A stretch of DNA of 64,000 nucleotides from an uncultured Desulfospira sp. (lineage in GTDB: Bacteria; Desulfobacterota; Desulfobacteria; Desulfobacterales; Desulfobacteraceae): positions 4,480,001 through 4,544,000 of the forward strand of contig OY760175.1 of assembly GCA_963663165.1 (NCBI GenBank). Reading direction: 5' to 3'. This document shows positions 4,684 through 18,706 of this stretch, piece by piece; positions within the stretch are counted from its first letter, which is position 1, and each line of letters opens with the position of its first letter. A program made the position numbers and the translations under genes. A model generated the notes under the pieces. That model worked only from the letters and a program-made list of their open reading frames with translations, was not told where the DNA came from and searched no databases.

Positions 4684-4935
4684 ATGGAAGCCATTACTTA
4701 TACAAATGCAAGGCAAAATCTCGCTAAAACCATGGAAAAGGTCTGTAATGACCGTGCCCCCATCATTGTGACCCGAAAATCTTCAGGTTCTGTGGTCATG
4801 ATATCACTTGAAGATTATGAAGCCCTTGAAGAAACCGCCTATCTTCTGCGGTCACCAAAAAACGCCAGGCGTCTTATCGAATCCATCGCCCAGCTTGAAA
4901 GCGGTAAAGGACAGGAAAGGAAGCTGCTGGAGTGA
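4684..4935 (+). CDS. yefM: Phd/YefM family antitoxin
   Basis: MEAITYTNARQNLAKTMEKV...ETAYLLRSPKNARRLIESIAQL is typical of YefM; AGGAGG RBS. Confidence 0.95.
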   Translation: MEAITYTNARQNLAKTMEKVCNDRAPIIVTRKSSGSVVMISLEDYEALEETAYLLRSPKNARRLIESIAQLESGKGQERKLLE

Positions 4936-5186
4936 AGCTCATTTTTTCGGACCATGCATGGAATGACTATCTCTTCTGGCAGAAAACCGATAAAAAAGTT
5001 CTACGCCGTATTAACACACTTATTAAAGATACAAAGCGAACCCCATTTGAGGGTGTTGGTAAGCCTGAACCTTTAAAACATGCGCTTTTCGGCTACTGGT
5101 CCAGACGGATAACCGATGAACACCGGTTTGTATACCGGGTTTTTGAAAATTCAATTGAAGTTGCTCAACTGCGATACCACTATTGA
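4932..5186 (+). CDS. yoeB: Txe/YoeB family toxin
   Basis: GKPEPLKH..GYWSRRITDEHR..Y...RYHY; GTGA overlap with yefM. Confidence 0.95.
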   Translation: MKLIFSDHAWNDYLFWQKTDKKVLRRINTLIKDTKRTPFEGVGKPEPLKHALFGYWSRRITDEHRFVYRVFENSIEVAQLRYHY

Positions 5187-6037
5187 TTTAAAACCACGCA
5201 GGCCATGATGTTGTAGACCAGCTGGGCGGCGGTAAAAGAGCAGGAATGAAGATAAGGGATCGGCGCCAGTTCAACCACATCAAAGCCGATACAGGTCCGG
5301 TTTTTTGTGATCGGTTTGATCAGGTCCATGGCCTGGAACCAGCCAAGGCCGCCGGGAACCGGGGTGCCGGTGGCCGGGACCAGGGACGGGTCCAAGCCGT
5401 CAATGTCAAAGGTGATATAGATTTGTTCGGGAAAATCGTCGGGCAGGGGGTTTTTCGGCAAATGCCGGTGGATCTCTTCGCTGTCAAAAAAGGGGATGGC
5501 GTGCTGTTGCCGGTATTCCTGCTCTTCAAGGCAATAACTCCGGGTGCCGACCTGGACCAGCGGAATGCCAAGCTCGTGTACCCGGCGCATGACACAGGCA
5601 TGGCTTAATGGGTTCTCTTCATAAATATTTCTTAAATCGGCATGGGCGTCAAACTGGACTACGCCAAACTGGGGGTGCCGTTTTCTCAAAGCGTTGACCG
5701 CGCCCAGGGTCACGGTATGTTCGCCGCCGAGAACAACCGGGATGCTGCGGGCAAGGCTTACCTCGTCTTCAATTCGTTCCAGCACTGCAGACACCGGGCC
5801 TTGGCAGTCAATGGGGGCTGCGGTATGAATGCCGTGGATGGAGGGATCAACCCCTAAGGCCAGGGTCTCCAGCTGGCAGGAGGCTTCAAGAATGGCGCTG
5901 GGGCCGTTGGCCGTACCGGTGCCGTAGGAGACAGACTGCTCTAAAGGAACCGGGATAACGTGGAACAGGGCGTCTTCAGGTGATGACGGGGCAACGTCAT
6001 CACCATGAAAATGAAGGTGCCGGGCTTCTTTTTTCAT
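5180..6037 (-). CDS. speB: Agmatinase
   Basis: Ureohydrolase motifs GGEHT, DAHAD, SHAC, DIDGLDP, TGTPVPGG; in an operon with speA. Confidence 0.92.
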   Translation of the reverse strand: MKKEARHLHFHGDDVAPSSPEDALFHVIPVPLEQSVSYGTGTANGPSAILEASCQLETLALGVDPSIHGIHTAAPIDCQGPVSAVLERIEDEVSLARSIPVVLGGEHTVTLGAVNALRKRHPQFGVVQFDAHADLRNIYEENPLSHACVMRRVHELGIPLVQVGTRSYCLEEQEYRQQHAIPFFDSEEIHRHLPKNPLPDDFPEQIYITFDIDGLDPSLVPATGTPVPGGLGWFQAMDLIKPITKNRTCIGFDVVELAPIPYLHSCSFTAAQLVYNIMACVVLNQ

Positions 6038-7209
6038 TTGATCCTCCCCAGGTAATCGTCGTAACCAAAGGACTTTACCAGCCGGGGGGAATCATCCTTG
6101 CCTGAAAAAGTATAGATGGCCGGCAGCTCTACCCCGTTAAACGTAGTGTTTTTTACAAAAGTGTACAGGGCCATATCCGTTAAAACCAGCCGCTCCCCTG
6201 TCCTAAGGGGCGCAGCAAAAGAATAGTCGCCGATAATATCCCCGGCAAGGCAGGAAATTCCCCCTAACCGGAAGGTGTGGGCAAATTCTTCCGGTGTACC
6301 TGATCCCAGAATGTGGGGCCGATAGGGCATGGCCAGCACATCGGGCATGTGGGTTTCGGCTGAGCAGTCCAGCACGGCAATGTCAAGATCGTTGTGAATG
6401 ATGTCCGCCACCGAGGTGACAAAGACCCCGGCGTCAAGGACCACGGCTTCCCCGGGTTCAAGATAGACATCCACATGGTACTGTCTGCGAAACCGGTTGA
6501 TGGTGTCACAGAGCAGGTCAATGTCGTAGCCGGAGCGGGTGATATGGTGCCCCCCGCCCAGGTTGATCCATTCCATTTGCTGGATATAGGGTTTGAACCG
6601 GTCCTCGAAGCTTTCTAAAACCCGGACCAGCACATTGGCTCCCTGTTCGCAAAGGGCGTGAAAGTGAAGCCCGGTGATGCCTGACAGGTCTGCCCCTTCA
6701 AGGTCTTTGGCAGACACCCCGAACCGGGAGCCCGGCAGGCAGGGGTTGTATAAATCCACTTTAACCTCGGCATGGCCCGGGTTTACCCGGAGCCCTGCCT
6801 TAATCTTCCCTTTTTGGTTTACCTGCTCTTTATACCGGTTCCACTGGCCCATGGAGTTGAAGATCACATGATCAGAATAGGTTAACACCCGCGCCATCTG
6901 GGACGGTGTATAGGCCGGTGCATAGGTGTGGACCTGGCCGCCGAACTCCTCCCGGCCAAGCCTGGCCTCGATGGGGCCGGAGGCGCAGACCCCGGAAAGG
7001 TACCGGGAAAGCAGGGGAAATACCGCGGGCAGGGCAAAGGCCTTGAGGGCCAGCAGGATTTTAACACCGGCCTGTTCCCGGACCCGGGAAAGGATCCGGC
7101 CGTTGCGGTGCAGGACATCCTCGCTGATCAGGTAGCAGGGGGTTTTTACCTGATCAATGATCCGGATCGGAAAATACGCCAGGGTTTTCTGATCAAGGGC
7201 CTTGTTCAC
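6034..7209 (-). CDS. nspC: Carboxy(nor)spermidine decarboxylase
   Basis: TPCY, PLP-Lys LALKAF, LHFHALCEQ, NLGGGHHIT, HMPDVL.MPYRP, CLAGD, TTFNG. Start placed at GTG 7209 after GGAG; the ORF-track start at 7299 overlaps the upstream gene. Confidence 0.93.
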   Translation of the reverse strand: MNKALDQKTLAYFPIRIIDQVKTPCYLISEDVLHRNGRILSRVREQAGVKILLALKAFALPAVFPLLSRYLSGVCASGPIEARLGREEFGGQVHTYAPAYTPSQMARVLTYSDHVIFNSMGQWNRYKEQVNQKGKIKAGLRVNPGHAEVKVDLYNPCLPGSRFGVSAKDLEGADLSGITGLHFHALCEQGANVLVRVLESFEDRFKPYIQQMEWINLGGGHHITRSGYDIDLLCDTINRFRRQYHVDVYLEPGEAVVLDAGVFVTSVADIIHNDLDIAVLDCSAETHMPDVLAMPYRPHILGSGTPEEFAHTFRLGGISCLAGDIIGDYSFAAPLRTGERLVLTDMALYTFVKNTTFNGVELPAIYTFSGKDDSPRLVKSFGYDDYLGRIK

Positions 7210-7213
7210 CGCA

Positions 7214-8431
7214 TTACTCCGGAAGGCTGCCCGTAAAGTCAACGGCCTGCCAGGGAAGCCCGTTCTGGTTGAGCTCTTCCATAAAGGGGTCCGGGTCAAG
7301 TTGCTCCACGTTAAACACCCCCTGCCCTTTCCAGATGCCTTTGACCATCATCATGGCCCCGATCATGGCCGGCACACCGGTGGTGTAGGAGACGGCCTGG
7401 GCCTGCACCTCTTTAAAGGCCTCGGCATGGTCGCAGACATTGTAAATATATTTCTGAACGGGATTCCCGTCTTTTTCCCCTTTAACCACACAGCCGATAA
7501 CGGTTTTGCCCGTGTAGTTGCTCCCAAGGGAACCGGGATCGGGAAGCAGGGCCTTTAAAAACCGGATGGGGACGATCTTCTGCCCTTGAAACTCAATTTC
7601 ATCAATCCGGGTCATCCCCACGTTTTCCAGGACCTTAAGATGGGTCAGGTAAGGCTGCCCAAAGGTCATCCAGAACCGGATCCGTTTCAGGCCCGGGATA
7701 TGCCTGACCAAGGATTCCATTTCTTCGTGATACAGCAGATAGCTTTCCTTTGGGCCGGCCACCGGGTAGTCAAAGGTAAAGTGGACGCAGTCGTCTTCCA
7801 GGATCGGCGGGGTTTCCACCCAGGTGCCCTCCTGCCAGTGGCGGACCACCTGGGTGACTTCCCGGATATTGATTTCCGGGTTAAAGTTGGTGGCAAAAGG
7901 GTGGCCGTGGTCACCGGCATTGCAGTCCAGGATATCAATGGTTTCAATGGAAGAAAACAGATGCTTCTGGGCCCAGGCGCAGAAAATGTTGGTAACACCG
8001 GGATCAAACCCGCACCCCAGCAGGGCCATGAGCCCTTTTTCCTTAAATTTATCCTGGTAGGCCCATTGCCAGCTGTATTCAAAGTGGGCCGTGTCCTCGG
8101 GCTCATAATTGGCCGTGTCCATATAGTTGACCCCGCATGCAAGGCAGGCGTCCATAATGGACAGGTCCTGGTAGGGCAGGGCCACATTAATCACCAGTTC
8201 CGGCCGGCACCGCTCAAGCAGTTCAACCAGGTCATCCACCTTGTCGGCATCCACCTGGGCCGTGGTGATGGAAACGGTGCACAATTTTTCCACTTCTTCA
8301 GCGATGGCTTCGCATTTGGACAAGGTCCGGCTGGCAAGCCATATATCAGAAAATACATTTTTGTGCATGGCGCATTTTTTGGCGACCACGTTGCCGACGC
8401 CGCCGGCGCCGATAATCAGGACACGTGACAT
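7214..8431 (-). CDS. Carboxy(nor)spermidine dehydrogenase (saccharopine dehydrogenase family)
   Basis: IIGAGGVG, NVALPYQDL, DTANYEP, GCGFDPG, FATNFNPEINIRE, QAVSYTTGVP; adjacent to nspC. Confidence 0.93.
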   Translation of the reverse strand: MSRVLIIGAGGVGNVVAKKCAMHKNVFSDIWLASRTLSKCEAIAEEVEKLCTVSITTAQVDADKVDDLVELLERCRPELVINVALPYQDLSIMDACLACGVNYMDTANYEPEDTAHFEYSWQWAYQDKFKEKGLMALLGCGFDPGVTNIFCAWAQKHLFSSIETIDILDCNAGDHGHPFATNFNPEINIREVTQVVRHWQEGTWVETPPILEDDCVHFTFDYPVAGPKESYLLYHEEMESLVRHIPGLKRIRFWMTFGQPYLTHLKVLENVGMTRIDEIEFQGQKIVPIRFLKALLPDPGSLGSNYTGKTVIGCVVKGEKDGNPVQKYIYNVCDHAEAFKEVQAQAVSYTTGVPAMIGAMMMVKGIWKGQGVFNVEQLDPDPFMEELNQNGLPWQAVDFTGSLPE

Positions 8432-8442
8432 ATTTTTCCTCC

Positions 8443-10344
8443 TTACTCTTTTTCAAAATAGGTGTAGCCCCGCAGGCCCTCTTCAAATTTCTTGAGAATG
8501 GTCTTGCGTTCTTTTGTTTTGATCAGCCCTTTTTCAATGGATTCTTCGGCTATCGCTTTGAGCCGCCCTTTAAAGGCCCGAAGGTCGTATTCCACATAAG
8601 ACAGGATATCTTCCACGGAGTCCCCCTCAATTTCATGGGCAAACTGGTAAGACCCGTCGGGGTTTGCCCTGATGGAGACAATATTGGTATCCCCGAACAG
8701 GTTGTGCAGGTCGCCTAAGGTTTCCTGGTAGGCCCCGACCAGGAAAACCCCCAGATAATACTCTTCATTTTCACGCAAAGGGTGAAGGGGAATCCGGTTT
8801 CTTTCCTGGTCTACCCCGGGAAAGGTGTCTAATTTACCGTCGCAGTCACAGGTGATATCGGAAATAATGGCCGGCCGGGTGGGTTCCTCGGTGAGCCGGT
8901 GAATGGGCATGATGGGCATGATCTGGTCTATGGCCCAGACATCGGGCAGGGATTGGAACAAGCTGAAATTGCCGTAATAGATGTCATAGACCAGCTCTTC
9001 AATGTTTTTGACCTCTTTGGGAACCCGGGTCAGGGTTTTGGCCACCTGGCTGATTTTAATCAGGATATGCTGGACCAGGTTTTCGGCAAGGGCCCGCTCC
9101 CGGATGGAGATCTGGCCGTGTTTGAACAACTGCCGGGCCTGGCTCCGGTAAAACAGGACATCGTTGCAGCACTCCTGCAGGTCCTTTGGGCTGACCATAT
9201 GATAATTGGCCAGTAAATTGTCAATCAGGTCATGGGCGGTTTCGGGCAGGTTTTCAGGAACAGGGGGCGGCTCAAAGGAGCTGACATCCAGAATGTTAAA
9301 CAGCAGAACAGATGAATAGGCCACCGTTGCCCTGCCCGATTCGGTGATGATAGTGGGGTGGGGAATCCCGCTTTTATCGAGCATGGTGATGATGGACTCC
9401 ACAATGTCGGTGCAGTATTCCTCCAAGGTGTAGTTCCGGCTTGAGGGGGTGTTGGAGTGGGACCCGTCATAGTCCACGGCAAGGCCACCGCCAAGGTCAA
9501 TAAACCCCATGGGAGCGCCTTCTTTGATCAGTTCTTCGTAAAGCCGGCACGCCTCCATGGCCCCGGCCCGGATGTCGCTGATGTTGGGAATCTGGGAGCC
9601 GATGTGGTAGTGGAGCAGTTTTAAAGTGGACAGCATATTTTCCTGTTTAAGCCGGTCAATGACATCTATCACATGGCTCATGGTCAGGCCAAAGACGCTG
9701 CTGTCCCCGCCGGATTCCGTCCATTTCCCTTCGGCCTGGGTGGACAGTTTGATCCTAAGGCCGATGTTGGGGGATATGGAAAGAACATGGGCCCGTTCAA
9801 TGATCAAATCGATTTCTCCGGGAACCTCCACCACAAAAATGACCTGGAACCCCATTTTAATGGCAAAAAGGCCAAGATCAATGAATTCTTCATCCTTGTA
9901 CCCGTTGCAGACCAGGCAGGCATCCCGGTTGTCCAGCATGGATATGGCGGCAATGAGCTCTGATTTGCTGCCCGCTTCAAGGCCGTGATTGTATTCCCTG
10001 CCGTATTTGGTGATGGTTTCCACCACCTGTTCCTGCTGGTTTACCTTTATGGGATAAACTCCCTTATATTCACCGGTATATCCGTTTTCTTTAATGGCGG
10101 TTCGAAACGCATCATGGAGAGATCCGATCTGGGAGCCAAGGATGTTTTCAATGCGAAGCAGAACCGGCATGGAATGGCCCCGGGCCTCTATTTCCCGGAT
10201 GATGTCAAACAGGCTGACTTTTGTATTGTTCCGGGCGCCAAACGGGGCAACAACCACCTCTCCCCGGTCATTTATGCTAAAGTATTCTGCCCCCCATTTG
10301 TCCACACCGTACAATTCGGTGGCCTGTTCCAGTGTCCAGGTCAT
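8443..10344 (-). CDS. speA: Biosynthetic arginine decarboxylase
   Basis: GVYPIKVNQ, GLEAGSK, HIGSQI, DLGGGLAVDYDG, ITESGR, DITCDCDG, GAYQETLGDLHNLFG. Confidence 0.96.
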   Translation of the reverse strand: MTWTLEQATELYGVDKWGAEYFSINDRGEVVVAPFGARNNTKVSLFDIIREIEARGHSMPVLLRIENILGSQIGSLHDAFRTAIKENGYTGEYKGVYPIKVNQQEQVVETITKYGREYNHGLEAGSKSELIAAISMLDNRDACLVCNGYKDEEFIDLGLFAIKMGFQVIFVVEVPGEIDLIIERAHVLSISPNIGLRIKLSTQAEGKWTESGGDSSVFGLTMSHVIDVIDRLKQENMLSTLKLLHYHIGSQIPNISDIRAGAMEACRLYEELIKEGAPMGFIDLGGGLAVDYDGSHSNTPSSRNYTLEEYCTDIVESIITMLDKSGIPHPTIITESGRATVAYSSVLLFNILDVSSFEPPPVPENLPETAHDLIDNLLANYHMVSPKDLQECCNDVLFYRSQARQLFKHGQISIRERALAENLVQHILIKISQVAKTLTRVPKEVKNIEELVYDIYYGNFSLFQSLPDVWAIDQIMPIMPIHRLTEEPTRPAIISDITCDCDGKLDTFPGVDQERNRIPLHPLRENEEYYLGVFLVGAYQETLGDLHNLFGDTNIVSIRANPDGSYQFAHEIEGDSVEDILSYVEYDLRAFKGRLKAIAEESIEKGLIKTKERKTILKKFEEGLRGYTYFEKE

Positions 10345-10414
10345 GGGCGTGTATCCTTTCTTTGTCCATATTGTTCAATGATACATTAATGTGTGAACCA
10401 TAACAGAAAAACTG

Positions 10415-10443
10415 CTTTTACGTAATAGCACAATTATTGTCAA
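10415..10443 (-). promoter_or_regulatory. Putative sigma70 promoter of the speA operon
   Basis: Minus strand TTGACA-17 nt-TAAAAG, about 70 nt upstream of the speA ATG. Confidence 0.6.
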
Positions 10444-10607
10444 TAACAATGAAAAGGAAGGCGGTTGATTTTTTTATACCGTTAAAAAATTTGCATTTAT
10501 GTAATTTTTTTAAAGACTGAAGGCTGCTGGCCCGGATATGTCACGACCTGTTGTTGTCTCAGGGACAGGGCCATTTTGACAGACAGTGCCTGGGCAAACA
10601 CACCCAT

Positions 10608-10733
10608 AAAAAAGGCCGGAAAGGAGGAGCGTCCTTTCCGGCCTGTGGCCCTGCGGAGGGAACTTAAAGGAGGGGTGCGGCAGCGTTGGGAGGAGGAGGG
10701 CCGCTGCCGCGGGTGTAACGCAAGCAGGAACCT
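10608..10733 (-). ncRNA. Candidate 3'UTR-derived sRNA with anti-SD (CCUCC) loops, ending in an intrinsic terminator
   Basis: Hairpin GCGGCAGCG/CGCUGCCGC with loop GCCCUCCUCCUCCCAA; unpaired CCCCUCCUUUA and CCCUCC; 13-bp terminator hairpin plus U-run. Confidence 0.55.
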
Positions 10734-10934
10734 TTAGCCTACTTTAAGATGGATATTATGGGATGCCAGGGTCGAGGTGACGGCCTGGTTCATTTGGGCA
10801 GGCGTCAGGTTTGACCGGTATTTCCCGCCAATCTCATTGATCTCAATTCCATCTATATTTTTCCGGGTCAGTTTAAGCAGTACGCTGAGCCCGAATGTTT
10901 TTTTAACTTCAAATAATTCTTTGGTGCTGTCCAT
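10734..10934 (-). CDS. Small hypothetical protein (66 aa)
   Basis: AAGGA RBS, sigma54 promoter just upstream, terminator downstream, protein-like composition. Confidence 0.75.
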   Translation of the reverse strand: MDSTKELFEVKKTFGLSVLLKLTRKNIDGIEINEIGGKYRSNLTPAQMNQAVTSTLASHNIHLKVG

Positions 10935-10980
10935 TTTATATATGTCCTTAAATTGCGTGTTAAACTATGAAAATTTATAA

Positions 10981-10997
10981 TGCAAACCGTGTGCCAA
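10981..10997 (-). promoter_or_regulatory. sigma54 (-24/-12) promoter
   Basis: Minus strand TTGGCAC-ACGGT-TTGCA, an exact TGGCAC-N5-TTGCA consensus, about 45 nt above the 66-aa ORF. Confidence 0.85.
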
Positions 10998-11376
10998 ATT
11001 TTTCAAACTGGACAAAAAATTTTAAAAGCCTTGGGGGTAAACGGATTTCAAGGGGTAAAAACGCAATGCCCGGGGGGTGATATTGAAATGGCAGAAAATA
11101 AATAACATTTTTGTTTTTATCTGGCCGGGGGGTATGGCGGGAAGCGAAGGCGCTGTTTTAATGTTTTCAATATGTTGGCATAAAATACAAGGCCTGGTTT
11201 TCCGCCGGGTAATTTTATGCAAAAAATACAGAATATGTTGCGTTTACCACAGATTTACTGTTATGGTGGCCTTTATTGAAACCGTGGACCCACCGGGATT
11301 TTTTTCAAGGTATTGAAGCCCTGGACGGCCATTGGTTTTATTCATGTTCTTTCAATTTAACCCACAGGAGAGATCA

Positions 11377-11895
11377 ATGACCGGAACCATTGCAGCCCTG
11401 GTTGCTGTGGCCGCGGCTATAGGAATAGGCGTGACGGTGTTAAAAAAAAAGAAGCCGGCCCCGGCTTCTTCCGAGCCACCGCCCCCTGAGCCGGAACAGC
11501 CCCCTAAAGATGAGACAGAGTTCAGAACTGTCCTGGATTCTTTACTCAAGCTTAATTTGATGGTCAGAACCGATGCCGGGTTCCCTTCAGACCTGACCCT
11601 TGAGATTGAGGCCATCATGGATGACTTAAAATCCGTAATTCCTCCCATGATGGAGCGGTACCCGGGTGAAGCCCTGACCTATGAACTCAAAAAAATCGGG
11701 GGAAACCACCTTCATAAAATTGTAAAGGAATTTCTGGATCTTTCCGCTGAGAGCAGAAAGGCCCAGGACAATATTTTTAGAAATTCCATCAAGAACCTGC
11801 AAGAGGTGACCAAACGCTCCCGGCAGATTATTGAAAGCAATGAAACCGCTGAGTTTAAAACCATGGCGCACTTTCTGGCCGGAAAGTTCTCCTGA
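11377..11895 (+). CDS. Membrane-anchored helical protein, XpaC-like partner of TelA
   Basis: AGGAGAG RBS before ATG 11377; N-terminal TM helix, KKKK, Pro-rich linker, helical domain; sits directly upstream of a TelA homolog. Confidence 0.6.
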   Translation: MTGTIAALVAVAAAIGIGVTVLKKKKPAPASSEPPPPEPEQPPKDETEFRTVLDSLLKLNLMVRTDAGFPSDLTLEIEAIMDDLKSVIPPMMERYPGEALTYELKKIGGNHLHKIVKEFLDLSAESRKAQDNIFRNSIKNLQEVTKRSRQIIESNETAEFKTMAHFLAGKFS

Positions 11896-12049
11896 AAATT
11901 TCGGACGAACCCTCACCCGGCTGCTGCAAAAATTTGTATCCGGGTAAATTTGGTCCAACGCCAAATCGATAATATTGAAAAACAGATGAAGGCCGCCGGA
12001 TAATCATTTTCATCCTTTATCCCTCATCCTTTCATACAAGGAGAGATCC

Positions 12050-13282
12050 ATGAGCGAGGCAGTACAAGATCTTCAAAGTGTTGTGAGCCAGGCAAAGGCC
12101 CCGGTTCTGGCAGAAGTTACAGAAACGTCAGGTCAGGGCGCGTTAACGCCGGTTCAGGCTCCCTCCAACCTGGTGCCGGTGGAACCCAGACACCTGGCCC
12201 CTGAAGACCTCAAGGCCCTGGAGGCTGAGGCCGACGAATTTATAGAAAAGGTTAAAGCCGATCCGTCCAACTGGCAGCTGGGAAATTTTGTCTTTTCCTT
12301 AGGCCAGGAGATCATGGAACAGACCCAGGCCCAGGTCAGCCTTTATGACCGGAAAATGGGCAGTGTCCTTAAAAACGTGGCCACGGATGAATCCTCCCCG
12401 GTGGGGAAAAATATTCTGGCCATCAAAGTCGAGCTGGACAAGGTCAACCCCACCGTGGTGGCCAGAACCGAAATGCCCTTTCCCAAAAAGGTGATGGGCC
12501 TGTTTACAAGGACCGTAAACCGGCTGCCCAAGGGGGATGAGATCCTTAGAATTATTTCGGAAAGACGGGAAACCGTGAATTCCACCATTGACGGCATCCG
12601 GACCCATCTGCGCAACGAGGCCGACCAGGTGGCCTTTGATGCCTCGGAACTGGCCGTAATCTGTGATGCCTTAAAAGAGGTCCAGCCGGCCCTTCAGGAA
12701 AGAATTTTCCTGGGCCAGTTGATCTGGACCCGGCTTATGGCCCAGATTGAACAGGCCCAGGACCCCCGGATCAAGGAAGCCCTGACCACCCTCACCTCAG
12801 ACCTTGCCATGGCCGTGGTAGACCTTCAGACCATTGACAACTCCAATCTCCAGACCCGGTTCGGCGGGGAGATGATGGTTAGAAATTCCCATCTGGTCAA
12901 ACGGCTGGTCCAGAGAACCGACATGATCCTGTCCACGGCCGTGAAAAACGCGTTGGCCGTCCGGGTGGCGGCTGAACAGCAGATGGAAACCATGCAGCAT
13001 CTGGACATGGTCCAGCAGGCGGCCGCTGAAACCATGAAAGACACGGCCAAAGTAATTGGTGCTGCAGCAGTCAAGGGGGCCCAGATGAGCCAGTCCATGA
13101 CCGTGAATATTGATGCTTTGGAAGAGGCCTGCCAGACCTATGAACAGGCATTTGAAGCCTATGCCCAGATTTCAAAGGAGACCATCAGCATTGCCTCCCA
13201 GAGTTCCACGGCCTTAGGGCAGATGAATGAAAAATTCCGTGCCAGGACCGATGCCCTGACCGCCAGAAGACAGGAGACATAA
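12050..13282 (+). CDS. Toxic anion resistance protein (TelA/KlaA/YaaN family)
   Basis: 410-aa all-helical coiled-coil protein with TelA-like layout (FSLGQEI..Q, ELDKVNP, KKVMGLF, VNIDALEEA). Confidence 0.7.
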   Translation: MSEAVQDLQSVVSQAKAPVLAEVTETSGQGALTPVQAPSNLVPVEPRHLAPEDLKALEAEADEFIEKVKADPSNWQLGNFVFSLGQEIMEQTQAQVSLYDRKMGSVLKNVATDESSPVGKNILAIKVELDKVNPTVVARTEMPFPKKVMGLFTRTVNRLPKGDEILRIISERRETVNSTIDGIRTHLRNEADQVAFDASELAVICDALKEVQPALQERIFLGQLIWTRLMAQIEQAQDPRIKEALTTLTSDLAMAVVDLQTIDNSNLQTRFGGEMMVRNSHLVKRLVQRTDMILSTAVKNALAVRVAAEQQMETMQHLDMVQQAAAETMKDTAKVIGAAAVKGAQMSQSMTVNIDALEEACQTYEQAFEAYAQISKETISIASQSSTALGQMNEKFRARTDALTARRQET

Positions 13283-13410
13283 GCGTTTGAACGACAATTC
13301 ACCCATCTGCGGCGTGGCTTCACAAATGATGTAATCCCCACAACCCTGAAGGTTGCTCCGGTTACAAATTTGCCTGCGCCTTGCATTTTAAGCAAATTCT
13401 CGTCCAAACC
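13283..13410. mobile_element. ~125-bp MITE-like element
   Basis: Imperfect terminal inverted repeats GTTTGAACGA / TCGTCCAAAC directly after the stop codon, with internal palindromy; a shorter similar element lies at 11896-11960. Confidence 0.5.
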
Positions 13411-13555
13411 CAGGCCCCCGGCCAGACATTAAAGTATATATAAAATATGTAGATTATAAATTCACAACAAACCATGAAAGCCATGAAGGTCATGGCACTG
13501 GCAACCCTAACAGCCTTCAGCCTATGCCCCTTCAGTCTTTCATACGGGAGAAACT

Positions 13556-14194
13556 ATGATTGATCCGGCAGTGAAAAAATCCTATGAGGAACGGTTTTCC
13601 ATTATCCGGACCCTGACACCCGAAGCCCTGGTTCCGGAAAGGCAGCAGATGGAACTGACCCTGAAAGACATCGGGGCCGGGGCTTTTTTCAGCTTTGAAG
13701 GCCAAAGTTTTTATGTCAAAGAAACGGCCGTTTATGAGGAAACCTCTGAAAATTTCAAGACCCGCCAGGGATATACGGTTACTGAACTGACCTGTCTGTG
13801 TCTTGAAACCGGTGAGACCATCTGGTTTGAATGGGAATATGACGATGAGCTGGAAATCAGCCTGACCCAGGAACGGATTTCTTTTCGGCAACTGACGGAT
13901 GAAGACGGGGAGTCCATTGATGAGGATGACCTGGACCAGATTGCCGATGACCAGGATGTCGTGGTATATAAAGGGGAGAAATTCTGGTATGAAGACGACT
14001 GGGCCGCCATCTATGAACGGGGCGGCCAGGAAGAGAAGCTCTTTGTTTATGAGTTTGAAAACGAGGCGGGAAACCGGTACCTCTCCATTGAGGAATGGCA
14101 GGGCTCGGTCAGGGAAGAATACCAGATCTATACCAGCAGGCCTGTGGCCCCCGGTGCCGTCAATATTATCGCTGCAAAGACTGAAGGGAAATAG
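13556..14194 (+). CDS. DUF4178-like acidic beta-rich protein
   Basis: Two beta repeats (IWFEWEYDDELEISL; YEFENEAGNRYLSIEEW); DUF350/SpeE operon context. Confidence 0.7.
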   Translation: MIDPAVKKSYEERFSIIRTLTPEALVPERQQMELTLKDIGAGAFFSFEGQSFYVKETAVYEETSENFKTRQGYTVTELTCLCLETGETIWFEWEYDDELEISLTQERISFRQLTDEDGESIDEDDLDQIADDQDVVVYKGEKFWYEDDWAAIYERGGQEEKLFVYEFENEAGNRYLSIEEWQGSVREEYQIYTSRPVAPGAVNIIAAKTEGK

Positions 14195-14251
14195 ACTGAA
14201 GGCTGAAGGTTGCTCATACTTCAGCCTAACACCCTTCAGCCTAAGACCTAA
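14179..14251. repeat. Inverted heptamer repeat cluster (GGCTGAA / TTCAGCC)
   Basis: GACTGAAGGCTGAAGG ... CTTCAGCCTAACACCCTTCAGCCTAAGACCTAA; near-identical to 15964-15992. Confidence 0.75.
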
Positions 14252-14273
14252 TACAAAAGGAGACTGATACAGG

Positions 14274-15905
14274 ATGTTTATAGGACACAGGAAGCTTTTC
14301 CAAAAGCTTATTCCCATCCTGATCCTGATTCCGGCACTGCTGGGATTGTCAGGATGCGGCCCCGGTCTTCCCGACCAGGTAAAACAAAAGGCCAAGGAAA
14401 TCCCCGGTGCCATAGAAAAATCGCGAACCACCCTGGAAGACCAGAGGAAAAAATTTTCTGTTCTTGTTTCCAGCCCGGATTTTAACCCCTTTGCTTCCTA
14501 TGCCCAAAAAGAGGACTGGGAGGGTAACTTTCAAAAAGCCGCCACCGGCCTTGACCGGGCAGAGACCCTTTTTAAACAGGATTTAAAGCCCCTGATCAAA
14601 CAGGACAAGCCGGAACTGTCCGGGCCCGTAACCGCCCAGACCCTGCGGATTAACAAGGTGATCAAAGAGGCTGGCCAGCAGGCCCGGTATCCCTTCGAGC
14701 GGTTTGCAAAGTTTAAAATTGCCCGGGAAAACATGGCCGGTATCCAGAAAGAGGCCCAGGACCAGGCCCGGAAAATTCAGGCCCTGGTGAACGACCTTGA
14801 AGGGACCGAAGTGGCAAAGGCCAAAACAGATTTTCCCGATGCGGTTGAAAAAATCGATGCCCGGTTTGCCCCGTTTGTGAAAATGCGCCGGGACTGCCAG
14901 GCCGCAACCAAAGCCATTGAAAAAGAGGTCAAAAACAAACAGGCCGGGCAGGCGGTTGACCTGGCGTTGTTCGTTGACAGCGCCGATGCCGTGGCAGAGG
15001 ATTATACCCTTGCAGCCGAGTCTGAAAAAAAATTCAAATCATCCATAGCCGGGCTTTACCAAAGCTATACCAAGGTCCTTCAGGATATGAAGCAGGAGTA
15101 TGCTGTGACCATCAAGCGCGAATCCTGGGATGAGCGGTCTGATTACAACACCTCCAAGATTGAGGTCTACAGACAGCCGGTGGATGCCCAGACCTTTGAG
15201 GCCCTGAATGACACCGAGCTTGACTCTATTGCATCCATTGTCCCGGGATTTTCTTCCAGCAGCCTGAAAAACCGGATCGGCCCGGCCTGGGATGCGCTGA
15301 ACATCAACCCCACAGAGCGCTGGCCTTCCGGGCATAATGCGGCCGAGTTCTGGGTTGACCAGACCGTGGTCCGCTGTTTTCACAAGTATCTTCTGGAAGA
15401 GGAAGGAAAAACCCGGGAAACCGACTGGGAAGAGGTGAACCCAAGTTTTTTTGAACAAAACTTTGAAAATTTGGGCATGGCCATTGTGTCCAAGCCTTAC
15501 GGGGTATTTGAGGAAGACTGCCTTACCCAGGCGGCCCCCCCGGGCATGGCCTATGTGGGCAACCCGGAATACGGGGAGTGGAAAACCGATAACAACGGGG
15601 ACCGCTTCTGGTCCTGGTACGGCAGATATGCCTTTTTCTCCAACCTGTTCTTTTTTCCGCCCTATTATTACTCTTACCGCTCCTGGCGGGGCTGGCATGA
15701 CAACTACCGGTATAAAAAGCCCTACTACGGCACCACGGCATCCGGGGGGAAGACGTTCGGCACCTCTGGCTCAACGGTTAAAACCTCGCCCCGGTATCAA
15801 GGTTCAACCTTTTCCAAGTCCGGCGGCTTTAAAACCAAGGCTCCGTCCGTCAGGGGGGCAAGCTCCAGGGTCCGGGGCGGCGGCCCGGGGGCAAGAGGGA
15901 AGTAG
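14274..15905 (+). CDS. Lipoprotein with coiled-coil body and Gly/Ser/Arg-rich tail
   Basis: Lipobox LSGC; conserved-looking APPGMAYVGNPEYGEW..FWSWYGRYAFF; basic tail ending SSRVRGGGPGARGK. Confidence 0.8.
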   Translation: MFIGHRKLFQKLIPILILIPALLGLSGCGPGLPDQVKQKAKEIPGAIEKSRTTLEDQRKKFSVLVSSPDFNPFASYAQKEDWEGNFQKAATGLDRAETLFKQDLKPLIKQDKPELSGPVTAQTLRINKVIKEAGQQARYPFERFAKFKIARENMAGIQKEAQDQARKIQALVNDLEGTEVAKAKTDFPDAVEKIDARFAPFVKMRRDCQAATKAIEKEVKNKQAGQAVDLALFVDSADAVAEDYTLAAESEKKFKSSIAGLYQSYTKVLQDMKQEYAVTIKRESWDERSDYNTSKIEVYRQPVDAQTFEALNDTELDSIASIVPGFSSSSLKNRIGPAWDALNINPTERWPSGHNAAEFWVDQTVVRCFHKYLLEEEGKTRETDWEEVNPSFFEQNFENLGMAIVSKPYGVFEEDCLTQAAPPGMAYVGNPEYGEWKTDNNGDRFWSWYGRYAFFSNLFFFPPYYYSYRSWRGWHDNYRYKKPYYGTTASGGKTFGTSGSTVKTSPRYQGSTFSKSGGFKTKAPSVRGASSRVRGGGPGARGK

Positions 15906-15910
15906 GGCAT

Positions 15911-16012
15911 TTAGGTGGATAGGCTGAAGACTGAAGGTCATTTTTAAGAATAGGGATTAACAACATACTTCAGCCTAAACCCCTTCAGCCTATCAGCTAA
16001 GCTTACAGCTAA
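15911..16012. repeat. Inverted heptamer repeat cluster (GGCTGAA / TTCAGCC)
   Basis: TAGGCTGAAGACTGAAGG ... CTTCAGCCTAAACCCCTTCAGCCTATCAGCTAA. Confidence 0.75.
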
Positions 16013-16031
16013 TTAAAAGGAGACATATATC

Positions 16032-16922
16032 ATGACGGCAGGAGGCATCTTCACAGGTCTGTTCCAGGGATTTTTCTTTTCCCTGGTCAGTATTTTTTTT
16101 ATATGGCTTGCCAAAATTGCTGATGACCGGCGGACCCGGGATTTTGATGATGATGAGCACATTGACAATGGAAACCTGGCCGTGGGCCTTCGGCGGGGCG
16201 GCCTTTATCTCGGGATTGCCCTTGGCCTGTCAGGCGCCCTTGACGGCCCTTCAGTTGGGTTTTTTACAGATACCTTCCATCTGATTGTCGACGGGGTCCT
16301 GGTGGTGGGGTTTTTGTTTTTATCCCGGTTTATCAATGACTTTCTCATGCTGGGCCATGTGTCCAATGATGAGGAGTGTGTCAGACAGTTTATTTTGGAG
16401 GACGGCCGGACCATTGTGGGAAATACGGCGGTGGGGCTGGTGGAAGCCGGCATGTATATTGCCACAGGGCTGATCCTTAAAGGCAGCCTGTCCGGCGGGG
16501 GCGGCACCTTTTTTCAGTCTCTGGGCAGTGCGGTTCTGTTTTTCATCTTAGGCCAGCTCGCCCTTTTGATTTTCGGATTTCTCTATGAACTGGCCACCCG
16601 GTTTAATATCAGGGATGAAATCAAAAAGAACAACCCGGCCGCAGGCTTAAGCCTTGGCGGCATCCTCATTGCCTTAGGGGTAATTTTAATGGGAAGCGTT
16701 TCCGGCCCGTTCCTGGGGTGGGGAGCCGACGTTGCCGGATTTTTTGTCTATACCGTATACGGCATTATCCTGCTGCTGGCATTCCGGCTGCTCATTGACC
16801 GGCTTTTGCTGCCCACCACCAATATGGCTGTTGAAATCACCGAAGACCAGAATGTTTCGGCCATGGTTGTGGTGGAATGTGCTATGACGGCGGTGGCCCT
16901 GGTGATTGCCTTTGCCATGTAA
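16032..16922 (+). CDS. DUF350 domain membrane protein (internally duplicated)
   Basis: Repeated GNLAVG / GNTAVG / NNPAAG / QNVSAM helical-hairpin motifs; about 8 TM helices. Confidence 0.85.
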   Translation: MTAGGIFTGLFQGFFFSLVSIFFIWLAKIADDRRTRDFDDDEHIDNGNLAVGLRRGGLYLGIALGLSGALDGPSVGFFTDTFHLIVDGVLVVGFLFLSRFINDFLMLGHVSNDEECVRQFILEDGRTIVGNTAVGLVEAGMYIATGLILKGSLSGGGGTFFQSLGSAVLFFILGQLALLIFGFLYELATRFNIRDEIKKNNPAAGLSLGGILIALGVILMGSVSGPFLGWGADVAGFFVYTVYGIILLLAFRLLIDRLLLPTTNMAVEITEDQNVSAMVVVECAMTAVALVIAFAM

Positions 16923-17010
16923 TTTGGGGATATGGGACTTGGGACCTGGGATGTGGGGTGCGCTGTCGGATAACCCCAAACCCCATGTCCCATATCCCAA
17001 ACCCCATGTC
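16923..17010. repeat. Inverted heptamer repeat cluster (ANNTGGG / CCCANN)
   Basis: ATATGGG ACTTGGG ACCTGGG ATGTGGG ... CCCCAAA CCCCATG TCCCATA TCCCAAA CCCCATG. Confidence 0.75.
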
Positions 17011-18706
17011 TTTTAAAGATCCTTTGACATCACCGTTTAAAAATAGATCCTTCAACTTTGCCTCTTTTCTGCTGGCCTCCTGCATGCTGGCGTCCGGGGC
17101 CTGCGGGATTATTCTGGAGTATATCCAGGCATCCCTGGCCTCCATGATCCTGGGCAATGCCTTTGAGCAGTGGGCCATGGTCATCGGGCTGATGCTGTTC
17201 TGGATGGGGTTCGGCAGCCTGATTCAAAAAAATATCCCTAAAGCCCTTTTGATTCCCGCCTTTATCGGCATTGAAACCGGGCTGGCCCTGGCCGGGGGAT
17301 TTTCCCCGACCTTGACCTATCTGTCTTACGGGTATACGGGCCATTATCCCCTGATTCTCTATTTTTTTGTCAGCCTGATCGGTATCCTCATCGGGCTTGA
17401 GATTCCGGTGATCATAAGGATCAACAACGATTATTCAACCGAGCTGTCCACCAATCTGGGCCATATCCTGAGCGCCGACTATATCGGGTCTTTGATCGGG
17501 GCCCTGGTTTATGTCTTTGTCCTGCTCCGGTTCTTTCCCATTACCGAGGGGGCGTTTCTGACCGCCGGGATCAACTTTTCCCTGGCCCTGGTGACCTTTG
17601 TCTATTTTACGAAAAAAAAGTTGATTCCGGGGGGCGGGCTTCTTTTTGTGCTGATGGCCCTGGTGTGTGCGGCCCTTGTCTTCGGGTATCACAACAGCCG
17701 ACAGTGGCAGGTCAAAAACGAACAGCCCCTTTATGATGATCCGGTGGTGTTCAGTAAAACCACCCGGTATCAGCACATTGTCATTACCCATTACAAGCCG
17801 TTGGATGAGATCCGGCTGTTTTTAAACGGCAACCTTCAGCTTTCCAGCCTGGATGAAGACCGGTACCATGAGTCGCTGGTCCACCCGGCCATGAACCTGG
17901 CCGTTGCCAAAACCAGGGTGTTGATCCTGGGCGGGGGAGACGGCTGTGCGTTACGGGAGGTCCTTAAATACCCTGAGGTCAAAGCGGTGGTCCTGGTGGA
18001 CCTTGACCCGGATATGACCCTCCTTGCCGCATCCCACCCCCTGCTGGTCCGGCTCAATGGGGGCGCATTCAAGGACAGCCGGCTGGTTTGCCTTGACGGT
18101 TCCGGAATCAGCCCGGGAGAAGATCGCAAGGTTTATGTGAATACCGGTTCCAGAAAAAAAGGAACCCTGAAGGCAAAGGAACTTGCCCGGGTCAATATCA
18201 TGAATATTGATGCGGACCGGTTTTTGTCTAAGGTGAAAGGGTTCTGGGACGTGATCATTGTGGACCTGCCCGATCCCTCCACCCCGGAGCTTGCCAAGCT
18301 TTACTCAAAGGAGTTTTATGCCAAAATCAAGCGAAAACTGGGCAAAACCGGCCTGGCCGTGATCCAGGCCACCTCCCCGTATTTTGCAAAGCAAAGCTTT
18401 CTTTGTATCGGCAGGACTCTTGAAGCCGCAGGCCTTTGTATCCTTCCCTTCCACGAAAACGTGCCCAGCTTCGGCGACTGGGGCTGGTTCCTGGCCTGGA
18501 ACCCGGTGCTGGGTGAACCCTTTGTCTCAGGCCGGATGAATCAGCTTGAAATTCCGGTTCCCACCCGGTTCATCAGCCCTGAGGTGTTTAAGCGCCAGAC
18601 GATTTTCGGCAAAGGCATGCTCAAGACCCAGGAAACATCAGTCAACACCCTGCTTTATCCGGTGCTGCTCACTTTGTACAACCATGAATCCTGGCTTACG
18701 GAATAA
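17006..18706 (+). CDS. speE: Membrane-bound polyamine aminopropyltransferase (spermidine synthase family)
   Basis: N-terminal ~7 TM domain (GLEIP, ADYIGSLIG); LFLNGNLQ, YHESLVHP, LILGGGDG, LVDLD, DLPDP, VPSFGDWG. Start could be 16985 or 17006. Confidence 0.9.
   Translation: MSFKDPLTSPFKNRSFNFASFLLASCMLASGACGIILEYIQASLASMILGNAFEQWAMVIGLMLFWMGFGSLIQKNIPKALLIPAFIGIETGLALAGGFSPTLTYLSYGYTGHYPLILYFFVSLIGILIGLEIPVIIRINNDYSTELSTNLGHILSADYIGSLIGALVYVFVLLRFFPITEGAFLTAGINFSLALVTFVYFTKKKLIPGGGLLFVLMALVCAALVFGYHNSRQWQVKNEQPLYDDPVVFSKTTRYQHIVITHYKPLDEIRLFLNGNLQLSSLDEDRYHESLVHPAMNLAVAKTRVLILGGGDGCALREVLKYPEVKAVVLVDLDPDMTLLAASHPLLVRLNGGAFKDSRLVCLDGSGISPGEDRKVYVNTGSRKKGTLKAKELARVNIMNIDADRFLSKVKGFWDVIIVDLPDPSTPELAKLYSKEFYAKIKRKLGKTGLAVIQATSPYFAKQSFLCIGRTLEAAGLCILPFHENVPSFGDWGWFLAWNPVLGEPFVSGRMNQLEIPVPTRFISPEVFKRQTIFGKGMLKTQETSVNTLLYPVLLTLYNHESWLTE

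Follow-up and report, generated by a model that had tools for sequence, protein, structure and literature searches.

RNAs that carry anti-Shine-Dalgarno (anti-SD) motifs are already known from Alphaproteobacteria and Firmicutes. Cuckoo RNAs consist of two to four adjacent hairpins, each with CCUCCUCCC in its loop, and all 321 of them, drawn from 2,689 genomes, are alphaproteobacterial (PMC4615179). The related CcsR1-4 RNAs arise by RNase E cleavage within the 3′ UTR of ccaF1, a DUF1127 gene under RpoH control (PMC8034643), and NfeR1 acts on ntrB as a silencer that uses redundant anti-SD loops and no Hfq (PMC10746234). In Staphylococcus aureus, RsaE blocks ribosome binding with unpaired UCCC motifs and without Hfq (PMC2790875), and icaR, whose long 3′ UTR contains an anti-SD motif, shows 5′-3′ UTR pairing (PMC3868564). 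GlnZ, an sRNA from the glnA 3′ UTR of Enterobacteriaceae, needs Hfq and pairs far upstream of the start codon (PMC9731577). A literature search that subscription journals largely escaped returned no paper on such RNAs in Desulfobacteraceae. Here we describe a small-protein gene of this family whose 3′ tail we read as a convergent variant of the anti-SD riboregulators and not as a conserved unit.

The window is a stretch of 64,000 nucleotides from an uncultured Desulfospira sp., a sulfate reducer, whose genome (G000; 6.74 Mb in one contig, 96.7% complete) was compared throughout with that of a sister species (G012). A sequence-only reading of the window had proposed a sigma54 promoter, a ribosome-binding site, a 66-aa ORF, a hairpin, linker motifs and a terminator with a U-run, and we found all of these present on the minus strand (Table 1).

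Table 1. Features of the 66-aa gene, its 3′ tail and the adjoining speA gene, in window coordinates.
Feature	Position	Strand	Basis or remark
ACA-N4-TGT site (ACAAAAATGT), candidate enhancer-binding-protein site	11105..11114	(-)	118 nt upstream of the -24 element; role inferred
Sigma54 (RpoN)-type -24/-12 motif, TGGCAC-N5-TTGCA	10981..10996	(-)	transcription start inferred at ~10970
Shine-Dalgarno core AGGA of the 66-aa gene	10945..10948	(-)	read from sequence
66-aa ORF, unnamed Desulfobacteraceae family	10734..10934	(-)	homologs and predicted small alpha/beta fold
Outer helix P1, 6 bp, 10729-10724 with 10654-10649	10649..10729	(-)	predicted fold; closes the motif-bearing region
Hairpin P2, 9 bp Watson-Crick, 10710-10702/10685-10677, loop GCCCUCCUCCUCCCAA (16 nt)	10677..10710	(-)	predicted fold
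22-nt single-stranded linker ACCCCUCCUUUAAGUUCCCUCC, two anti-SD motifs	10655..10676	(-)	predicted fold
Linker motifs CCCCUCCUUUA and CCCUCC	10675-10665; 10660-10655	(-)	unpaired in predicted fold
Intrinsic terminator: 13-bp stem (10644-10613), loop CGCUCC, U-run	10608..10644	(-)	fourth motif overlaps loop and 3′ stem
Sigma70-like promoter candidate for speA, TTGACA-17-TAAAAG	10415..10443	(-)	outside the unit; TTGACA kept in G012
speA (arginine decarboxylase)	8443..10344	(-)	TIGR01273 above cut-off; neighbour only

The 66-aa gene belongs to a real protein family of the Desulfobacteraceae. Conservation of the small protein, claimed from the sequence alone, was borne out by 54 clusters in a large protein search and by matches in 52 of 151 Desulfobacteraceae genomes, which represent 6 of 19 genera and hold up to four copies. 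A 50%-identity library gave 37 clusters, two of them repeat-protein noise. The closest named relatives are an uncultured Desulfospira sp. (98% identical protein) and Desulfobacter spp., and a profile of the protein found no homolog among 300 further genomes across the phylum (1 from the same family). The protein had no Pfam match at E 0.1 and none in PHROGs or PDB sequences, an ESM Atlas search gave no usable match, and an NCBIfam scan of 52 family members assigned no family (5 isolated weak matches). AlphaFold2 modelled a confident small alpha/beta fold (pLDDT 86), for which Foldseek returned a best E of 0.23 and VIA a best Z of 4.5 (rmsd 3.7, 59 aligned), with no hit at Z of 5 or above; considered against ferredoxin-like and RNA-binding small alpha-beta folds, none of these hits was significant. 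A homodimer prediction scored 0.02, which is evidence neither way.

The promoter is shared across much of this family. From 69 matches in the 151 genomes, 68 were fetched (the one omitted lay at a contig edge) and one was not recovered by tblastn, which left 67 distinct loci. A -24/-12 motif lies within 200 nt upstream at 44 of these 67 loci, compared to 73 of 4868 G000 genes (1.5%; the genes are predictions of a simple gene caller made for this analysis), and the sigma54-type motif of the sequence-only reading is thus a conserved one. The 6.74-Mb genome, which also encodes rpoN, contains 5 copies of the exact TGGCAC-N5-TTGCA pattern. Farther upstream, 70-170 nt from the sigma54 motif, ACA-N4-TGT is found at 18 of the 19 closest loci (at least 64% identity); overall it precedes 24 of the 43 loci with a usable upstream region, against 1.8% of 10913 intergenic 110-nt windows. 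Promoter and upstream-site counts are not independent, because the genomes are kin. We regard ACA-N4-TGT as a candidate activator site.

Downstream of the stop codon, the tail comprises 126 nt (10733-10608), predicted to fold as P1 around P2 and the linker, followed by the terminator and U-run. P1, which the earlier reading had missed, encloses the first three anti-SD motifs in this predicted fold. These three are open, with unpaired probabilities of 0.9-1.0; the fourth lies mostly inside the terminator stem, its three overlapping 5-mers having mean unpaired probabilities of 0.82, 0.42 and 0.22. The P2 loop is fully unpaired and contains the cuckoo nonamer CCUCCUCCC, and CCTCCTCCTCCC occurs once in the whole 6.74-Mb genome. 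With the terminator included, the fold has a z of -4.67 that none of 200 shuffles reached. The clustering of anti-SD motifs exceeds chance: this gene alone among the 4868 has four CCUCC/CUCCU groups in its 3′ 130 nt (4347 others have none, 478 one, 41 two and 1 three), and 24 of 5000 dinucleotide shuffles reached four.

The tail does not follow the gene through the family. The 66-aa orthologs stop at the same codon and the DNA downstream of it is unrelated; among 66 ortholog loci with at least 150 nt of downstream sequence, four motif groups occur in 2 (G000 and G012), one in 6 and none in 58. BLAST against 161 family genomes recovered a full-length copy in G012 alone (93%) and none in the other 159. 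A covariance model built from the two copies, which themselves score 166-170 bits, found nothing else above 32 bits over 150 genomes, and its weaker matches were mostly plain terminators. A search of sequencing runs listed no RNA run among the carriers, and in the contigs of 4 runs the tail appeared only in the window form or a G012-like form. A metagenome pattern scan, a weak test, gave at least 119 stretches, and the 80 examined were low-complexity C/T DNA without gene or tail (2 of them with a chance stem of at least 5 bp). With the tail at 2 of 66 loci, the loops are not kept behind orthologs, an outcome that the sequence-only reading had itself named as refuting, and therefore the proposal of a conserved small-protein and sRNA unit fails.

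Between G000 and G012, the tail nevertheless looks constrained. Its 76-nt core has 2 changes, compared to 41 at 261 nearby fourfold-degenerate sites (Fisher p 0.0015), and the whole tail has 8 in 126 (p 0.009 in the same comparison); against the upstream intergenic region, the core gives p 0.027 and the whole tail p 0.16, which is not significant. All 28 tail pairs are retained in G012, two of them via double changes: a compensatory C-G to U-A in P1, and an A-U to C-G at the base of the terminator stem that depends on how an indel is placed in the U-run. P2 is identical and the linker has one U-to-C change. Because only two species carry the tail, the covariation is without statistical power (124 of 500 shuffles matched it). 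The DNA directly past the terminator has been replaced between the two genomes. The best reading of these patterns is that the tail would be a recent gain of the two-species lineage, added to a promoter, enhancer-like site and ORF that appear old.

We compared this arrangement to the described systems. No Rfam family matched at gathering score across the window; below threshold, the tail scored 31.9 of 58.8 bits with ar14 (RF02344) and 24.7 of 65.3 with CcsR1 (RF02791), a model that several further genomes of the order match at 24-26.5 bits, often within long ORFs. As in the cuckoo systems, a small-protein gene read from an alternative sigma factor's promoter precedes a 3′ RNA with a CCUCCUCCC hairpin loop and redundant anti-SD motifs. 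Unlike them, the window tail has a single such loop, its other motifs being shorter and placed in the linker or half in the terminator stem; the protein is not DUF1127, given its lack of a Pfam match and its alpha/beta model; the promoter is of the sigma54 type and not RpoH-dependent; the host is a member of the Desulfobacteraceae; and the tail is not conserved with its gene. The one loop, the Rfam scores far below cut-off and the absence of DUF1127 rule out membership in the cuckoo/CcsR group. The earlier description of the unit as analogous but unrelated therefore fits: by analogy, the tail could work like a cuckoo RNA without being one. The DUF1127 gene that G000 does possess (L137:1420-2694, C1 near 4851500) lies 360 kb away and has no cuckoo or C-rich hairpins behind it; it is divergent from a regulator gene, LysR-like by eye. 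A second ar14 match in G012 (L134) is false, being a CRISPR-like repeat array with CCCCUCCC in its repeat.

The parent transcript of GlnZ is sigma54-dependent, and the GlnZ seed is of the G/U type. The window tail resembles GlnZ in belonging to the 3′ UTR of a sigma54-type transcript with an intrinsic terminator at its end, here as judged by motif and conservation alone. It differs in its anti-SD motifs, in their retention in only 2 of 66 ortholog 3′ UTRs, and in the genome's lack of a detected Hfq. A search for Hfq (PF17209) found none in G000 or 5 relatives (96-100% complete), with a control search positive in 5 of 14 known genomes. G000 encodes two RNase E/G genes. RsaE shares the unpaired C-rich motifs and shows that such a design can arise independently, although RsaE and the UCCC-motif sRNAs are stand-alone Firmicutes sRNA genes.

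We consider the tail real, very young and probably functional. The chances seem to us about even that it is a recent anti-SD riboregulator in the 3′ UTR of a sigma54 transcript, and one independent of Hfq, since Hfq was not detected in G000 or the five relatives. Sigma54 activation would lead to transcription of the stand-alone 66-aa gene, and the resulting mRNA of ~360 nt would carry the tail, or RNase E/G might cut it off. The open C/U-rich loops may then pair with several other mRNAs at the ribosome-binding site and so lower their translation when the promoter fires, without Hfq, as with NfeR1 and RsaE. Duplex scans of 4868 translation-start regions gave generic G-rich matches only and no standout target. 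If the tail acts in trans, it would be a cuckoo-like regulator of very recent and convergent origin in a lineage without detected Hfq, and a regulatory 3′ end gained by an old gene.

The main rival, possible though on balance unlikely, is that the tail is an ordinary structured 3′ UTR that stabilises the mRNA end, with C-rich loops that have no pairing role and are common to two close species by descent. Species-specific 3′ UTRs are indeed frequent, those of orthologous genes often varying from one species to the next (PMC7049690), and the motif cluster is missing from 64 of the 66 ortholog loci. Single C-rich loops are also common in G000, where 238 hairpins of at least 7 bp have CCTCC or CTCCT in the loop, and the whole tail is not significantly conserved against upstream intergenic DNA (p 0.16). 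Against this stand the four groups within 126 nt, unique among 4868 3′ ends, and the near-identity (2 changes in 76) of loop and linkers whose sequence would be free to vary if stability were their only role. Should the tail merely stabilise, what is left is a conserved small-protein gene driven by sigma54.

Two further conserved anti-SD tails, which lend the riboregulator reading some support, came to light behind sigma54 genes of the same family. An ar14 scan of 141 family genomes returned a distinct element in the glnK-amtB 3′ UTR, its best score of 36.4 bits being below cut-off. This conserved tail is 170-190 nt long and multi-hairpin, and its C-rich anti-SD motifs number up to three or four (L113, L114, L117-L121, L124, L127, L129, L261-L277). 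Among the 25 genomes of genus g3, a model of 10 copies scored above 129 bits in 17, in every case (17/17) behind amtB and in 15 of 17 with at least two anti-SD groups, and all 12 glnK-amtB operons checked have a sigma54 motif. The amtB tail is thus a candidate nitrogen-linked 3′ UTR sRNA; its model did not match the window tail. In G000 and in G028, a genome of the same genus, amtB is extended by codons that run over what in g3 is the first non-coding hairpin (L140:1306-1427, the G000 amtB end). The G000 end retains the terminator stem and one CUCCUUUAA motif, and that of G028 the terminator stem only.

A second tail follows the DVU0772-family gene (NF045682), which is present in 143 of 161 genomes and has a sigma54 motif at 87 of the 90 loci examined (L307-L396). 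We take this gene to be linked to oxidative stress; no paper naming 'DVU0772' was found in the literature searched. A CCUCC...GUUCC pattern was called in the 3′ region of 33 of the 90 loci (19/19 in g19, 8/17 in g3, 4/8 in g13, 1/23 in g11 and 1 in g6), although three calls (L329, L339, L380) fall in the terminator or downstream DNA and look spurious. Across an alignment of 21 copies, selected for having the motif, ACC(G/A)(C/U)CUCC and GUUCC are nearly invariant, while covariation in the terminator stem is free. Within the 3′ UTR, AAGUUCC..GCCAG pairs with the last part of the coding sequence, and ACCGCCUCC is displayed in a loop ahead of the terminator. Two DVU0772 3′ ends (L341 and L318) had no Rfam match at E 0.05. 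In a permutation test on 27 pairs, DVU0772 tails paired with their own ribosome-binding site no better than with those of other genomes (p 0.95; p 0.21 within g19). The amtB tail (17 of 25 g3 genomes) and the DVU0772 tail (19 of 19 g19 loci and three further genera) are stronger and more testable candidates than the window tail.

A doubtful history, compatible with the riboregulator reading, is that the middle of the window tail was recruited from the DVU0772 3′ end and lost there in exactly G000 and G012. It was suggested by the window-tail model, which retrieved two DVU0772 3′ ends (G044, 30.8 bits; G098, 20.4 bits), and by 17 shared nucleotides (window 10673-10657), CCUCC(C/U)UUAAGUUCCCU, at which the G012 form equals the G131 locus in 17 of 17 positions. 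The DVU0772-tail model also finds G028, of the same genus, at 70.7 bits and has no match in G000 or G012, in both of which a convergent gene comes directly after DVU0772; the G000 gene (C1:45645-45995) has no tail. The reverse searches were not significant, however, and for that reason we hold the idea to be unlikely. The DVU0772-tail model gives the window tail 11.2 bits (E 1.3), and a profile of 32 segments ranks it third in the genome (E 0.53), its 12.8 bits standing beside top scores of 12.9, 10.7 and 12.6 in shuffled genomes. Moreover, the seed-plus-GUUCC pattern is missing from 57 of 90 DVU0772 loci anyway, and the lead was chosen out of a search across 150 genomes. Still more speculative, and distinctly improbable in our view, is a general scheme in which Desulfobacteraceae, with no Hfq found, would use portable anti-SD tails on sigma54 transcripts, namely those of the 66-aa gene, glnK-amtB and the DVU0772-family gene; the window tail would have moved from DVU0772 and acquired its cuckoo-like loop afterwards or on the way, with the 66-aa protein perhaps an RNA-binding partner like CcaF1 for CcsR.

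Control in cis, with the tail folding onto its own ribosome-binding site to limit synthesis of the 66-aa protein, would follow the icaR precedent (PMC3868564), which has in common with the tail an anti-SD motif in the 3′ UTR and a possible helix at the ribosome-binding site of the same transcript. In both species, C(U/C)UUAAGUU of the tail can form a 9-bp helix with AAUUUAAGG of the 5′ UTR; the linker U-to-C change turns a G-U into a G-C pair, and the helix is part of the G012 minimum-energy fold. Such a helix is nevertheless permitted with both variants by 3.7% of all genes, the duplex of the tail with its own site is weak (-6.2 kcal/mol, equalled or bettered by 79.5% of genes), and the expected 5′-3′ pairs (4.5 and 8.5) are inside the range of non-cognate grafts. 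Cognate pairing is, unlike in icaR, no better than in these grafted controls, and 24 of 40 ortholog transcripts reach at least 4 expected pairs without the tail. This mode of control, which would also leave the CCUCCUCCC loop unexplained, strikes us as quite improbable.

The remaining explanations have very little in their favour. A GGA-rich CsrA sponge on the plus strand, offered as an alternative in the sequence-only reading, would draw on the CsrA encoded in G000 and on a plus strand that folds stably (z -2.79) with GGA repeats in the P2 loop. Yet no plus-strand promoter was predicted in 10300-11400, the plus strand has no terminator, and the U-run follows the terminator hairpin on the minus strand only, in keeping with the strand that reading had preferred. 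The GGA motifs are not distributed over several short hairpin loops, and csrA is directly followed by fliW, as in the flagellar type of CsrA, which is controlled by the FliW protein. We consider the sponge most unlikely.

Equally hard to credit is a coding origin of the conservation, as a short plus-strand peptide or as read-through of the TAA in the 66-aa frame. Both frames are open across the tail, and six of the 8 substitutions share one codon phase and are mostly synonymous in both frames (p 0.02 for the given phase), but p rises to ~0.06 when any phase is allowed. No start or end common to G000 and G012 was found that would fit a plausible coding frame across the tail: an indel separates the two genomes in the upstream part of the plus frame, its only shared GTG is 1 nt past a GGAGG, and read-through on the minus strand would stop at a different length in each. 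The stop codon common to the orthologs, with unrelated DNA beyond it, also argues against this explanation.

A leader or attenuator of the speA polyamine operon is hardly tenable either: speA is on the same strand as the tail, 264 nt downstream of it, but speA comes next after the 66-aa gene at 2 of 67 loci, the spacer from terminator to speA has been replaced between those two (G000 and G012), speA has its own TTGACA-17-TAAAAG candidate, and the predicted folds contain no alternative anti-terminator. The position just upstream of speA, true of the window, is thus not conserved, and we regard the polyamine link as accidental because speA is a rare neighbour, its spacer was replaced and it has a sigma70-like candidate of its own. 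This candidate was not listed by the promoter scanner because its -10 element has no final T.

The 66-aa gene stands alone and its neighbours vary among loci. At most g3 loci (Desulfobacter titles) it lies between a divergent sigma54 response regulator and crcB; in G000, crcB and a kinase-regulator pair are adjacent without the 66-aa gene, 110 kb away. Some 200-230 nt past the 66-aa gene, several loci (L025, L028, L032, L033, L036-L039) have, ahead of crcB, a small conserved hairpin, GAGGTGG(C/T)ATTCACC(T), with TATGACTG after it. We presume that this hairpin and TATGACTG may form a divergent fluoride-riboswitch-like leader; L028 gave no Rfam match at E 0.05. The palindrome ACATTAATGT, which has the ACA-N4-TGT form of the upstream site and is a possible regulator site, occurs in the speA leader (window 10383-10392). 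It has 6 genome copies, and another of them separates crcB from the kinase gene in G000. Behind 11 Desulfobacter-type orthologs, the palindrome or a variant of it is found at a distance of 117-155 nt, ahead of crcB. The window also holds a minus-strand polyamine cluster (5180-10344: speA, a saccharopine-dehydrogenase-like gene, nspC and agmatinase) and a plus-strand cluster (11377-18706: TelA, DUF4178, DUF350 and polyamine aminopropyltransferase). Convergent with agmatinase, at 4684-5186, are a YoeB-like toxin gene and an upstream gene for an 83-aa partner, likely a type II toxin-antitoxin pair.
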